From an uncultured Chloroflexia bacterium (lineage in GTDB: Bacteria > Chloroflexota > Dehalococcoidia > DSTF01 > JALHUB01), in contig CAVSBT010000037.1 in assembly GCA_963726245.1 (NCBI GenBank), forward strand, positions 1 to 64,000: a stretch of 64,000 bases of DNA, in the 5' to 3' direction. Below, piece by piece: positions 11,357-42,082 of the stretch. How positions within the stretch are numbered: position 1 is the stretch's first letter; the number at the start of each line of letters is the position of its first letter. The position numbers were made by a program, and so were the translations under genes. The notes under the pieces are model-generated. The model worked only from the letters and a program-made list of their open reading frames with translations, searched no databases and was not told the DNA's origin.

Positions 11357-13037
11357 CTATACCGTGAGGGTCTCTCTCTGCTCGCCCCAGACGCCGCGAA
11401 GCACGTCGCAGATCTCGCCCAGGGTGGCGTGGGCCTCGACGGCCTCGATGAAGAGGGGCATCAGGTTCTCGCTGCCCCGCGCCGTCTCCTCGATGCGACC
11501 CAGCAGGCGGCGCACGCGCCCGCCATCGCGACGGGCCCGCAGCTCGCGCAGGCGCTCGCTCTGGCGCTGGCCCACCCGCGGGTCGACGCGCAGCAGCCCC
11601 CCCAGGGGCGGCTCCTCGGTGACGTACTTGTTCACCCCCACGACCACCCGCCGCCCCGCCTCCAGCTCCCTCTGCATGCGGTAGGCGTTCTCCTGGATCT
11701 CCCGCTGCGGATAGCCCTGCTCGATGGCCGCCAGCGCCCCGCCGATGTCGTCGATACGGCCCATGTACGCCTGCGGCCTCAGCCTCCACCCGGTCCGTCA
11801 GGTGCTCGACGTAGTAGGCCCCGCCGAGGGGGTCGGTGGTGTCGGCCACGCCGCTCTCGTAGGCGATGACCTGCTGGGTGCGCAGGGCGAGCTGCTGCGA
11901 CTGCTCGCTGGGCAGGGCCAGCGCCTCGTCGCGCGAGTTGGTGTGCAGGGACTGCGTGCCGCCCAGGACGGCGGCCAGCGCCTGGAGGGTGGTGCGGACG
12001 ACGTTGTTGTCGGGCTGCTGGGCGGTCAGGGTGACGCCGCCGGTCTGCGTGTGGAAGCGCAGCATCATGGAGCGGGGGTCGCGGGCGCCGAAGCGCTCCT
12101 TCATGATGCGCGCCCAGAGGCGCCGGGCCGCCCGGAACTTGGCCACCTCCTCCAGGAAGTTGTTGTGGCAGGCGAAGAAGAAGGAGAGCCGCGGCGCGAA
12201 GTCGTCCACGGCCAGGCCGACGCCCAGCGCCGCCTCCACGTAGGCGATGGCGTTGGCCAGGGTGAACGCCGACCTCCTGCACCGCCGTCGAGCCGGCCTC
12301 GCGGATGTGGTAGCCGCTGATGCTGATCGTGTTCCAGGAGGGCAGGTTGTCGCGGCACCAGGCGAAGACGTCGGTGACCAGCCGCATCGAGGGCCGCGGC
12401 GGGAAGATGTAGGTGCCGCGGGCGATGTACTCCTTGAGGATGTCGTTCTGGACCGTGCCGCCCAGCTTCGACAGGTCGGCGCCCTGCTGCTTGGCCACGG
12501 CCACGTACAGCGCCAGCAGGATGGCCGCGGTGGCGTTGATCGTCATGGAGGTGGTCACCTGCTCCAGCGGGAATCTCCCGGAAGAGCGTCTCCATGTCCA
12601 GCGATGGAGCAGATGGACACGCCCACCTTGCCCACCTCGCCGGCGGCCAGGGGATGGTCGGCGTCGTAGCCGATCTGGGTCGGCAGGTCGAAGGCCACCG
12701 AGAGGCCGGTCTGCCCCTGCTCCAGCAGGTAGCGGTAGCGCCGGTTCGACTCCTCGGCGTCGGCGAAGCCGGCGTACTGGCGCATGGTCCACAGCCGCCC
12801 GCGGTACATGGTGGGCTGGACGCCGCGCGTGTAAGGGTACTCGCCGGGGAAGCCCAGCTTCTGGAGGTAGTCCCAGGAGGCCAGGTCCTCGGGGCTGTAG
12901 AGGACGTCTACCCCTGCCCCGGAGCTGGTCTCGAGGAGTCCTGCCTGTCCGGCAGGCTGGTCCGGCCGCTCCGGCGCGCGCTCCACCGCCTCGCGGAGGG
13001 TGCTCTCCGACCACTCCTTCTTGCTGCGACTGGGCAC
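11357..13037 (-). CDS. mutA: Methylmalonyl-CoA mutase large (substrate-binding) subunit (several apparent frameshifts)
   Basis: [47 protein letters not shown] and GGTQSLHTN. The Tyr of RQYAGF and Arg of IARGT fit methylmalonyl-CoA specificity. GTG start inferred from a GGGAG RBS. Confidence 0.92.
12940..12960. repeat. 21-bp mini-palindrome inside the mutA coding sequence
   Basis: Minus strand CCAGCCTGCCGGACAGGCAGG, encoding QPAGQAG; same family as 17884, 41112 and 40837. Confidence 0.65.
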
Positions 13038-13254
13038 GGCGGGTCTCCCGGCAGGCGAACGCCTGGGACAAAAGGGGACGGCCAAGCAGCCGTCCTCGCG
13101 CCAGGATGCCAGTGTAGCTATGAGCCAGGCCGCCTGTCAACGCGACGCGGCCGCTCGTTCCCGGCCGGAATTACGAGTAGTGCGTAGATCCCTTGATAAG
13201 TCCCGCACGAGGCGTACAATGCTCCTGTCCAGATCTGTCCGGAGAGGTCACGCC

Positions 13255-40872: not shown

Positions 40873-40954
40873 GACTGTCATCCTTTACGCCACCTGTGCG
40901 CTCGGTTAAGCTGGAATGGACGGTTTCCACACTGCGGCCACGTACGAAGCCGAA

Positions 40955-42082
40955 ATGACGATAGAATCGACACCCGGCGCCATGGATCCCGAAGGGCTGC
41001 GGACCGTCGAGGCCCTATTCCGGCAGCAGATCGATGAGGGGCTCCATCCCGGCGCCTCTCTGGCTGTCTATCGCCACGGCCGCCTGGTGCTGGAGTTGTT
41101 CGGCGGCCTGGCCCGCCTGGCGGACGGGCAGGCCGAGCAGGAATCGGGCCGGCCCGTGACGCCGGAGACGCTCTTCGTCCTCTTCTCCGCCACGAAACCT
41201 TTATCGGCCGTCTGCCTTCACATCCTCCTGGAGCGGGGCCGCTTCGACCTGGACGATCCTGTCGCTCGCTTCTGGCCGGAGTTCGCGCGCAACGGCAAGG
41301 CCGCCGTGACCGTGCGCCACGTCCTCACCCACAGCGGCGGCTTCCCTCAGCACCCGCCGCAACTTCCGCCGCGGAAATGGGGCGATTGGAAGGTCATCGT
41401 GCAGGCGATGGAGGAGATCGAGCCCATTTGGGAGCCGGGGCAGGACACGGGCTACCATCCACTCAACTTCGGCTGGGTGGTGGGCGAGCTGGTACGCCGC
41501 ATCGACGGTCGGCCCATCTCGCAGTTCCTGAAAGACGAGGTAACCGGCCCTCTTGGGATGCATGACACCTACCTGGGCCTGCCGCCGGAACTGGAGGGAC
41601 GCGTCGCCCGTCTCTACGCAGCGGACGAAGAAGTAGATCCCCGGGTAGTGGCCGTGTTCAACCGGCCGGAAGTCCACCAGGCGGTAATCCCGGCCGGAGG
41701 CGGAATCAGCGCGGCCCGCGACCTGGCTCGCTTCTATGCCACGCTGGCGGCCGGTGGGACGCTCGACGGCATGCGCATCCTCTCGGCGGAGAGCGTGGAG
41801 CGCGCCACCGCCCTGCAGGTGCACGTGCAAAGCGACCGCACGCTGGGCATCCCCATGCGCTGGGCCCTGGGCTTCCACCTGGGCGGGAACCCCGTCGACC
41901 TGTTTGGGTACAACACGAGTCCCCGCGCCTTCGGCCATGGCGGACACGGCAGCTCCGTCGGCTGGGCGGACCCCGACCTGGGGCTGGCCGTAGCCATCAT
42001 CACCAACGGCCTGCGGAGTCCTGCCGGCCACGCCATGCGGGTCGCGGCCCTGTCCGAAGCCATACGAAAGGCCTGTCTCTAG
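40955..42082 (+). CDS. Serine hydrolase, beta-lactamase-like (EstA type)
   Basis: FSATK (SxxK), LTHSGG, YHP and FGHGG.GSS.GWADP. Confidence 0.93.
   Translation: MTIESTPGAMDPEGLRTVEALFRQQIDEGLHPGASLAVYRHGRLVLELFGGLARLADGQAEQESGRPVTPETLFVLFSATKPLSAVCLHILLERGRFDLDDPVARFWPEFARNGKAAVTVRHVLTHSGGFPQHPPQLPPRKWGDWKVIVQAMEEIEPIWEPGQDTGYHPLNFGWVVGELVRRIDGRPISQFLKDEVTGPLGMHDTYLGLPPELEGRVARLYAADEEVDPRVVAVFNRPEVHQAVIPAGGGISAARDLARFYATLAAGGTLDGMRILSAESVERATALQVHVQSDRTLGIPMRWALGFHLGGNPVDLFGYNTSPRAFGHGGHGSSVGWADPDLGLAVAIITNGLRSPAGHAMRVAALSEAIRKACL
41112..41132. repeat. 21-bp mini-palindrome inside the serine hydrolase CDS
   Basis: CCCGCCTGGCGGACGGGCAGG, encoding RLADGQA. Confidence 0.65.

Follow-up and report, generated by a model that had tools for sequence, protein, structure and literature searches.

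The stretch of DNA considered here (the window) is the first 64 kb of contig CAVSBT010000037.1 from an uncultured Chloroflexia bacterium. It has a GC content of 66.6% and contains three copies of a short palindromic sequence, two of them in frame within enzyme genes and one in a non-coding leader region. This sequence is treated below as a very small insertion element and, for brevity, is called E. An earlier sequence-only reading of the window had reported palindromes of 21 bases at the two coding sites and of 20 bases at the non-coding one, and all three are confirmed in the window sequence, in both position and length. The copies (A, B and C) and the genes associated with them are as follows.

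12940-12960, minus strand: copy A, CCAGCCTGCCGGACAGGCAGG, 21 bases, in frame in the mutase large-subunit gene, where it encodes QPAGQAG
41112-41132, plus strand: copy B, CCCGCCTGGCGGACGGGCAGG, 21 bases, in frame in the serine hydrolase gene, where it encodes RLADGQA (residues 67-73)
17884-17903: copy C, CCTGCCTGCGGGCAGGCAGG, 20 bases, non-coding; the ATG at 17922 starts 17 bases past the end of the palindrome
11360..13037, minus strand: host gene of copy A, large (N-terminal domain) subunit of a split enzyme of the methylmalonyl-CoA-mutase family, with Pfam MM_CoA_mutase on two pieces
40916..42082, plus strand: host gene of copy B, intact, 388 residues, Beta-lactamase (PF00144) family, EstA-like, class-C beta-lactamase fold
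17922..19181, plus strand: gene that follows copy C, encoding a membrane protein of the Na_Ca_ex family (Pfam), with copy C in its leader region

The three copies and their host enzymes

Copies A and B are identical at 18 of 21 positions, which on its own is not significant in 64 kb of DNA with this GC content. A shuffle test with a pattern derived from A and B (5 matches versus 0.54 expected) is circular, and because that pattern came from the two copies themselves, an independent test was needed with canonical forms from outside the window. Such forms were recovered from other genomes as two 21-mers, v1 (CCTGCCTGCCGGACAGGCAGG) and v2 (CCCGCCTGCCGGACGGGCAGG). The canonical 21-base form can be written as (CCYG)(CCTG)-CCGGA-(CRGG)(CAGG), and a 20-base form without the A, CCTGCCTGCCGGCAGGCAGG, which was recovered in the flanks of outside loci, is a perfect palindrome. 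Each window copy differs from its canonical form by one mismatch: A from v1 at position 3, B from v2 at position 9, and C from the 20-base form. Matches with three or fewer mismatches to the forms of A, B and C are expected only 0.00, 0.02 and 0.01 times, respectively, per 100 dinucleotide shuffles. With one mismatch each set against these expectations, the window copies can be assigned to the outside family. The checks proposed with the sequence-only reading come out in its favour here: the motif exceeds its shuffle expectation by a wide margin, and it forms a dispersed family in many genomes. It is very probable that A, B and C descend from a tiny non-autonomous insertion element and are old copies with few mutations, whatever the class of enzyme that may move it.

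In terms of fold, A and B had been described as palindromes. Both are indeed hairpin-like, but the hairpins are imperfect, with 7 of 8 arm Watson-Crick pairs in A and 6 of 8 in B as read from their sequences. Copy C, together with its flanks, forms a perfect 24-base palindrome at 17882-17905, and a scan of 17300-18000 around it found no terminator-like or promoter-like site. Both coding copies lie on the same strand as their genes, A in the phase that gives LPAGQAG in the canonical form and B in that which gives RLPDGQ, as in the outside family. It was also correctly noted that the two copies are read in different frames, such that the DNA is shared and not the peptide; across hosts, too, the same DNA appears in different frames.

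The name mutA, which had been given to the host gene of A, denotes the small subunit of the mutase. Copy A does lie in frame within a mutase-family gene, but the gene is that of the large subunit. Its nearest solved relative, the large subunit of 2-hydroxyisobutyryl-CoA mutase (PDB 4r3u), has a seven-residue gap exactly at the insert. Among 120 aligned homologues, 108 are without the insert (mostly 551 residues long); the seven extra residues (D-x-P-x-G-R/Q-A-G) are present in the query and its nine closest homologues (558 residues), one further homologue has a 17-residue version, and two are unaligned at this point. The homologue inserts PPAGRAG and PPAGQAG are the canonical element spelled out. 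In the AlphaFold model of one insert-bearing homologue (P0121), which has a mean predicted local distance difference test score (pLDDT) of 73.1, the insert at residues 26-33 is coil with pLDDT below 50. The 17-residue version (P0153) contains ten extra residues, PAKGGSASGG, in its loop part; these are not E sequence and may represent a different small insert.

Downstream of the insert, the mutase gene in the window changes frame four times, near 12602, 12570, 12264 and 11774, and a tblastn search with P0121 recovers it in five pieces of 90-100% identity, in frames -3, -1, -2, -3 and -1. Every break resembles one extra G after a C (ATC-G-CTGGA, CCC-G-CTGGA, GGC-G-TTC and GCC-G-CAG on the coding strand), a pattern which suggests systematic indels of sequencing or assembly rather than an old pseudogene. 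Other frames in the window, at 35119-37695, 25842-26483, 48412-49260 and 10725-11350, also appear to be fused or cut short. One open frame holds both an alcohol dehydrogenase and part of a family-1 glycosidase, a thiolase is represented by its C-terminal part only, the match of an aldo/keto reductase spans profile positions 1-196 of 291, and the frame changes within an epimerase-like start. The fused and truncated frames may be further indel errors like those of the mutase.

The product of the hydrolase gene that carries B was likewise aligned with 120 homologues, of which 110, including the closest (P0001), are without the insert; nine carry an insert there, of +4, +7 or +11 residues, and one is partial. 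Against four PDB homologues the net gap is again seven residues. In the AlphaFold model (mean pLDDT 87.3), residues 69-76 are coil with pLDDT below 50, lying between strands 56-65 and 86-89. In both enzymes, therefore, close homologues show a clean seven-residue gap, including a hydrolase sister of 95% identity that has no insert, and both inserts fall in low-confidence coil of the models, commensurate with the surface loops that had been proposed for them.

Inserts in the hydrolase homologues add to this picture. That of P0003, RLPDGQA, is the canonical element spelled out. The +11 insert, RLPAHRTGSPAGQ, can be divided into RL, a PACRTGR-like part and a PDGQ-like part, and can be understood as a further copy, with three substitutions and in the PACRTGR phase, that is nested at the start of the loop of the first. 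Homologues P0002 and P0004-P0008 have a secondary seven-residue insertion inside the loop part of the first insert.

Elsewhere in the window, looser half-site matches (at 5612, 36327, 50102, 59688, 63485 and other positions) have no copy-like fold and are about as numerous as expected, and are not regarded as copies. Two partial matches may be either chance or very decayed copies, one comprising the right arm and loop (CGGACGGGCAGG, 63485-63505, just past the end of an open reading frame, ORF) and the other the left arm and loop (GCCTGGCGGAC, 59688-59698).

The family in other genomes and its insertion unit

A scan of species genomes with the pattern common to A and B (CCNGCCTGNCGGACNGGCAGG) returned at least 123 loci, with about 3 kb or less of sequence per locus. 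The counts of copies given from here on (126 distinct, 114 canonical and 113 with flank) are those among the matches listed for these loci, and phyla were assigned by record titles. Because the pattern fixed 18 of the 21 positions, the free evidence lies only in positions 3, 9 and 15 and in the AT-rich context of the copies. At least 126 distinct copies are present, 52 of them exact v1 and 50 exact v2. Position 9 is C in 115 of the 126. Positions 3 and 15 are linked, being T/A in 54 copies and C/G in 53, with mixed T/G or C/A in just 7 and other combinations in 12. As for context, the flanks of the 114 canonical copies are below 50% GC in 88 cases and below 45% in 69, where chance would give about 0.002 matches per Gb (at 40% GC). 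The 12 non-canonical matches, on the other hand, come almost entirely from genomes of 62-78% GC, which is what would be expected by chance. Overall, the hosts of E range from 27% to 67% GC.

Bacteroidota account for 64 of the canonical copies, and the remainder are distributed under some 20 other phylum names, which include Omnitrophota, Nitrospirota, Planctomycetota, Saccharimonadota and other candidate-phyla groups, Ignavibacteriota, Elusimicrobiota, Bacillota and Chloroflexota, along with one Woesearchaeota archaeon. None of the matches listed is cyanobacterial. Most of the records are metagenome bins, although the titles of cultured strains occur among them, for example Flavobacterium soyangense, Aureibaculum, Psychroserpens, Flavivirga and Mucilaginibacter. 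Both v1 and v2 are found in one contig (L005-L007; loci are cited here by such numbers). In a phage collection (50,697 records) a full exact copy was not found, the best being matches of 18 exact bases or 20 of 21, with expect values of at least 1. In a plasmid collection (72,556 records) the matches listed are all at chance level, with seven further records at 99% identity or above, which may hold short exact copies. A full copy is present in none of 5,426 E. coli genomes, which gave partial matches only (expect value 4).

Many copies lie within genes. Where coding is taken to mean a frame open for at least 60 codons on both sides of the copy, 43 of the 114 canonical copies are in long open frames, as are 27 of the 65 for which the flank is at least 900 bases on both sides; translation of the inserts is deduced from these open frames. 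The hosts named by Pfam include MetRS, PheS, MutS, Mfd, MetH, phosphoenolpyruvate (PEP) synthase, RNase R, 3-hydroxyacyl-CoA dehydrogenases, PRA isomerase, histidine kinases, a type II secretion ATPase, a glycosyltransferase and an HsdS subunit. Of the 43 in-gene copies, 35 have the orientation of the gene and 8 the opposite; 21 are in the LPAGQAG/PPAGRAG phase and 11 in that of RLPDGQ/CLPDRQ. This uneven use of frames fits selection on the encoded peptide, a bias of insertion, or both. Comparisons of RNase R (L072) and MetRS (L076) with solved structures gave messy alignments in linkers, and are not used as evidence.

The unit that is added can be judged from proteins with and without an insert. 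Empty versions were compared as protein sequences, with the 21-base unit deduced from the seven-residue difference, and a clean addition of seven residues is seen in five families: the mutase (558 residues filled, 551 empty), the hydrolase, PEP synthase, PheS and Bro-N. The PEP synthase of Flavobacterium soyangense (L052:408-2873) has two copies of E at different sites in one gene. At site 1, 16 of 120 homologues have (N/T/K)RLP(D/E)GQ, and the DNA of this gene is exact v2; at site 2, LSDRQAD/LPDRQTG and similar peptides are present in 21 of 120, and the DNA is the reverse complement of v1 with three mismatches. The lengths of the homologues (804, 811 and 818 residues) track zero, one or two inserts. 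One of them has LPAGQVG at site 2 where others have LPDRQAG-like peptides, as if the loop had been inverted or the site hit twice. The PheS of a gammaproteobacterial bin has a seven-residue insert relative to two solved homologues, and of a pair of Bro-N proteins one has such an insert and the other does not. At L008 a tandem heptamer repeat keeps its register across the insert. Since the added length is exactly 21 bases and the L008 repeat is unbroken, there is no duplication of the target site. In other words, E enters DNA as an exact 20/21-base unit without target duplication.

The preference for target sequence is weak: immediately before the site (-1) the base is G in 62 of 114 copies (and T in 3), and immediately after it (+1) the base is G or T in 84 of 113. 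Copies also tend to lie in hairpin loops. A flanking stem of at least six pairs surrounds 6 of 113 copies, versus 1% of control positions, and in five of these six the stem is another copy of E, entered at or beside CCG^GAC in the loop. E also lies in loops of unrelated palindromes (L110, L003). Nested copies of E occur at L107, L033, L090, L089 and L029, and tandem pairs at L007, L031 and L101. Heptamer tandem repeats flank 3 of 113 copies, versus 0.19% of controls, while repeats with periods of 4-6 and 8-10 flank none of the 113. E is thus often found in hairpin loops prone to single-strandedness, its own loop at CCG^GAC included, and in tandem heptamers.

A number of loci show more elaborate arrangements. 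At L074/L095, L070/L071, L047/L086 and L110, E has a fixed place inside larger repeats (about 210, 370 and 55 bases) or in the loops of another palindromic array; carried in this way in several bins, E also spreads as a passenger. In a Bacillota bin, two GC-rich, multi-layer palindromes of 60-90 bases, built of CCTGCC-like units (L042:880-945 and 1290-1370), are partly reverse-complementary and bracket about 345 bases of AT-rich DNA, an arrangement that may represent an invertible segment or a small element with inverted repeats. At L109:275-420, E lies inside an apparent 5' half of a tRNA (acceptor and D-arm), with the start of an ORF directly after it; this start may resemble that of a GIY-YIG nuclease. 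ARAGORN, run on 16 loci, found one unrelated tRNA-Ser only, such that the tRNA-like flank at L109 is not a whole tRNA. At L017:752-2026 a gene of the PDDEXK_2 family (a PD-(D/E)XK 'transposase' family) is split into two ORFs of the same frame by a stop codon a few bases past the inserted copy of E.

Turnover, mobility and rival explanations

The distribution of the insert on protein trees, built from full-length proteins with the insert columns removed and treated for this purpose as unrooted, is patchy. On the mutase tree the 10 insert-bearing proteins among 45 rows need five changes, all forced by well-supported branches; five are needed in all bootstrap trees, and a single insert-bearing clade is rejected (approximately unbiased, AU, test, p = 8e-6). 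On the hydrolase tree, 10 insert-bearing proteins among 26 rows need three changes, two of them forced, with a single clade again rejected (AU p = 1.7e-5). Here the window hydrolase is sister to the insert-free P0001 with support of 100/99. The trees thus suggest that the insert was gained or lost at least five times in the mutase and at least three times in the hydrolase. The residues that flank the insert follow lineage and not the insert, for which reason long recombination tracts are disfavoured.

A reading of E that takes in its whole distribution is that machinery not yet recognised writes one 21-base hairpin, which has two linked variants, into genomes of about 20 phyla and removes it from them. 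This is possible, although it stops short of being probable. The machinery would need to be horizontally shared or near-universal, with a range that includes candidate-phyla bacteria and at least one DPANN archaeon. On the main reading of E as a very small insertion element, which is held to be very probable, movement would require a protein supplied in trans. Within genes only copies with a length divisible by three would survive, and these would be read through as seven residues (LPAGQAG, RLPDGQ, PPAGRAG) in disordered surface loops. After insertion a copy would decay by point mutation, possibly receive a second, nested copy, and possibly be lost. The sequence-only reading had proposed a minimal non-autonomous mobile element; this is supported, but the element is not special to this genome, and ‘mobile’ is here a word suggested by patterns of presence and absence.

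As to the nature of the mover, enzymes of the HUH/Y1 class (IS200/IS605 and the REP-associated tyrosine transposases, RAYT, where REP denotes a repetitive extragenic palindrome) use hairpins, leave no target duplication and excise precisely. A hairpin substrate, the lack of duplication, the exact unit, entry into loops and apparently clean loss are the reasons for which a nuclease of this kind, acting by single-strand hairpin cut-and-paste, is put forward as the likeliest, though still tentative, candidate. The linkage of positions 3 and 15 would fit recognition by a guide tetranucleotide, the type known from IS608, and would equally fit two alleles of a master template. Two structural accounts were also tried. 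A pseudoknot reading of the covariation is ruled out on geometry, there being no loop bases between the stems, and a symmetric model, in which two identical tails anneal at CCGG, fits the 20-base form and v1 but fails for v2. The homologous Bro-N proteins at L005 and L025 were rejected as mobilising enzymes; they look like ordinary DinD/antirepressor-like proteins, and one of them itself hosts E.

Several points weigh against a mobile element of this kind. No transposase, HUH or recombinase family is found by Pfam among the 62 ORFs of the window, as had been said of the mobilising enzyme from the outset, and no transposase, HUH or reverse transcriptase recurs among 28 host and 96 neighbour ORFs at other copies. 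Most REP-RAYT systems belong to particular lineages, whereas the sequence of E does not change from phylum to phylum; this sameness is better fitted by a fixed template or a horizontally moving enzyme than by local copy-and-paste. At the same time, uniformity is partly built into a search pattern that fixes most positions. Regarding the fold, v1 is a perfect hairpin of eight pairs but v2 breaks the simple hairpin with C-A and T-G oppositions, such that the linked change at positions 3 and 15 is unexplained by the hairpin. The trees do not separate repeated gain, repeated precise loss and short-tract recombination. Lastly, as the mutase is frame-broken in the window, copy A may not be translated in this genome.

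The main rival that is kept is templated writing, whereby each copy would be made afresh from one conserved master template and pasted into breaks or hairpin loops, the genomic copies themselves never moving; the template might be, for instance, a small RNA or DNA belonging to a retroelement or a repair system that spreads horizontally. Such an origin would account for the finding that two sequence types make up 102 of the 126 copies across about 20 phylum names, for the presence of v1 and v2 together in the contig of L005-L007, and for the lack of lineage-specific private variants among the matches listed. The linked change at positions 3 and 15, with its 7 rare mixed forms, resembles two alleles of a template, and the arms are made of four-base units (CCYG/CRGG), with the 20-base form a perfect palindrome around CCGG. 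The pattern search itself favours uniform copies, however, and diverged copies do exist, in the window, at site 2 of PEP synthase (three mismatches) and among 20-base variants. Moreover, no reverse transcriptase or similar gene is recurrent near the copies in the ORFs scanned, and the apparent precise losses on the trees would call for a second process. Templated writing is regarded as doubtful.

The other rivals carry less weight. It is improbable that E is a functional cis-element under selection (a protein binding site, a structural signal, or an RNA hairpin that tunes translation or stability) which has been spread by recombination. The occurrence of E as an extra block of 21 bases, inserted at unrelated places in enzymes of different families and present or absent among proteins that are 90-95% identical, does not sit well with such a role, and neither do nesting in itself and in other repeats, mutational decay of the window copies and the result that no Rfam family was matched at the gathering threshold in 16 loci; the same sequence across phyla, the many intergenic copies and the position of C 17 bases before a start codon would suit it. 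Unrelated local indels, made by slippage or template switching in variable loops and alike by chance in a GC-rich genome, can be credited with next to no probability, having already been contradicted by the outside family and by the shuffle tests with canonical forms. It is true that pairs identical at 18 of 21 bases are expected by chance in 64 kb by the estimate made in this analysis, that both host sites are loops of variable length in distant homologues and that short direct repeats (GGCCTGGCC / CGCCTGGCG) are present at the hydrolase site. Yet the same 21-mers recur in AT-rich genomes, for which the chance expectation is about 0.002 per Gb, each window copy differs by one mismatch from a form that was defined outside the window, and the inserts of homologues spell E in other frames or variants (PPAGRAG, RLPDGQA). 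An artefact of sequencing, library preparation or assembly that adds a constant palindromic oligonucleotide is just as hard to credit. A constant, self-complementary 20/21-mer without target duplication does resemble a linker, most of the listed matches are metagenome bins, and the window itself has indel-like errors. On the other side, the sequence on either side of the insert is contiguous, with reading frames running through, and the insert also appears in records titled as cultured strains; 16 and 21 PEP synthases from several sources, and nine mutase homologues, have it in common with amino-acid changes, and the copies have diverged and use frames unevenly within genes.

Should E indeed be a hairpin written into and removed from genomes by shared machinery, it would be the smallest and most widely distributed prokaryotic mobile sequence known, and it would naturally generate loop insertions of seven residues in essential enzymes; the covariation of positions 3 and 15 would then be a trace of the way in which the machinery reads its template or substrate. 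Provided that the pattern holds genome-wide, a gene-less sequence of 21 bases has spread across very distant lineages, inside tRNA synthetases, MutS, Mfd, MetH and similar enzymes. E would then offer a testable route to an insertion/excision activity, together with a natural experiment on which protein loops tolerate insertion. It would also give a warning for annotation and alignment, in that seven-residue indels of the LPAGQAG, RLPDGQ and PPAGRAG types would be element-derived; they are homoplasious on trees and unfit as phylogenetic characters.

Comparison with known systems

The closest known kinds of sequence are the small dispersed repeats (SDRs) of Nostocaceae and intragenic REPs, from which E is set apart by its breadth, the constancy of its sequence and its frequency inside conserved enzymes. 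Elhai and co-workers reportedly described SDR1-8 of Nostocaceae in 2008 as hairpin-forming sequences of 21-27 bases that leave no target duplication; they are said to nest in copies of one another, to be embedded in tandem heptamer repeats and small transposons, and to have neither coding capacity nor a known enzyme. Likened to these by description and not by sequence, E has 20/21 bases, a predicted hairpin, no target duplication and no coding capacity, and it is nested in itself (at five loci and in the doubled hydrolase insert) and found in heptamer repeats. In passages that cite the SDR work, SDR5 is precisely inserted between bases 3 and 4 of HIP1, and another such passage reports no SDR-like repeat outside Nostocaceae (PMC5861425, PMC4390886, PMC3116915, PMC2884548). 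E likewise inserts precisely into a short palindrome. A fold shared through compensatory changes is a further trait ascribed to SDRs; in E, v1 is a perfect eight-pair hairpin, which the v1/v2 difference at positions 3 and 15 does not preserve. E occurs under about 20 phylum names, none of them cyanobacterial among the matches listed; its GC-rich sequence lies in AT-rich hosts and is frequent within the genes of conserved enzymes.

The sequence-only reading had compared E with the Rickettsia palindromic elements (RPEs), said to have been described by Ogata and co-workers in 2000. The analogy is apt insofar as both are palindromic repeats placed in frame in unrelated protein genes and tolerated there as extra peptide, E keeping the reading frame, but SDRs and intragenic REPs are nearer analogues. 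The long RPE-1 type has about 100-150 bases; it adds tens of residues and is confined to Rickettsia, in contrast to the 21 bases, seven residues and many phyla of E. Miniature inverted-repeat transposable elements differ in having terminal inverted repeats and a target-site duplication, where E adds exactly 21 bases and no duplication.

Yeast mitochondrial GC clusters are short GC-rich palindromes scattered in AT-rich DNA, sometimes in coding sequence; they are elements of a eukaryotic organelle, however, and are longer, more variable and not shared across lineages. IS200/IS605 elements depend on hairpins, make no target duplication, excise seamlessly and use single-stranded targets. The hairpin, the lack of duplication and the apparently clean loss are traits that E has in common with them; background on this family is given in PMC6006769. 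These elements nevertheless exceed 600 bases, have two different hairpin ends and need a strict target of 4-5 bases, whereas E is one 21-base hairpin with a weak flank preference (G at -1 in 62 of 114, G or T at +1 in 84 of 113 listed copies).

REPs and the REPINs moved with RAYTs resemble E, in the parts of the literature consulted, as dispersed, non-autonomous, imperfect GC-rich palindromes of 20-40 bases (Bertels and Rainey 2011, PMC3116915; PMC6006769), and REPs have been proposed to move as single-strand hairpins. Passages of Di Nocera et al. 2013 (PMC3733652) have REPs found inside genes and then translated, describe RPE-4 and RPE-6 as REP-like repeats and also treat RPE-1, and give as the tag of REPs a conserved GTAG or CGTC tetranucleotide at one end. 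Bacteroidetes have their own TnpA-REP subclasses in the passages seen of Quentin et al. 2018 (PMC6006769). E, by contrast, starts with CCYG, ends with CAGG and has no such tag at either end; it is not mostly extragenic, with 43 of 114 listed copies in long open frames, it occurs as single units and not as doublets, and its sequence is the same across phyla where REPs are lineage-specific. Nor was a RAYT gene flanked by copies of E seen in the ORFs scanned, no Y1 transposase family being reported among the 62 of the window and 124 adjacent to copies. The literature searched, which did not cover the intragenic-REP supplement lists of PMC3733652, gave no description of the E sequence, its peptides or a cross-phylum insert of 21 bases. 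Within this landscape, E would widen the range of very small mobile repeats, which have so far been reported from Nostocaceae only, to prokaryotes in general.

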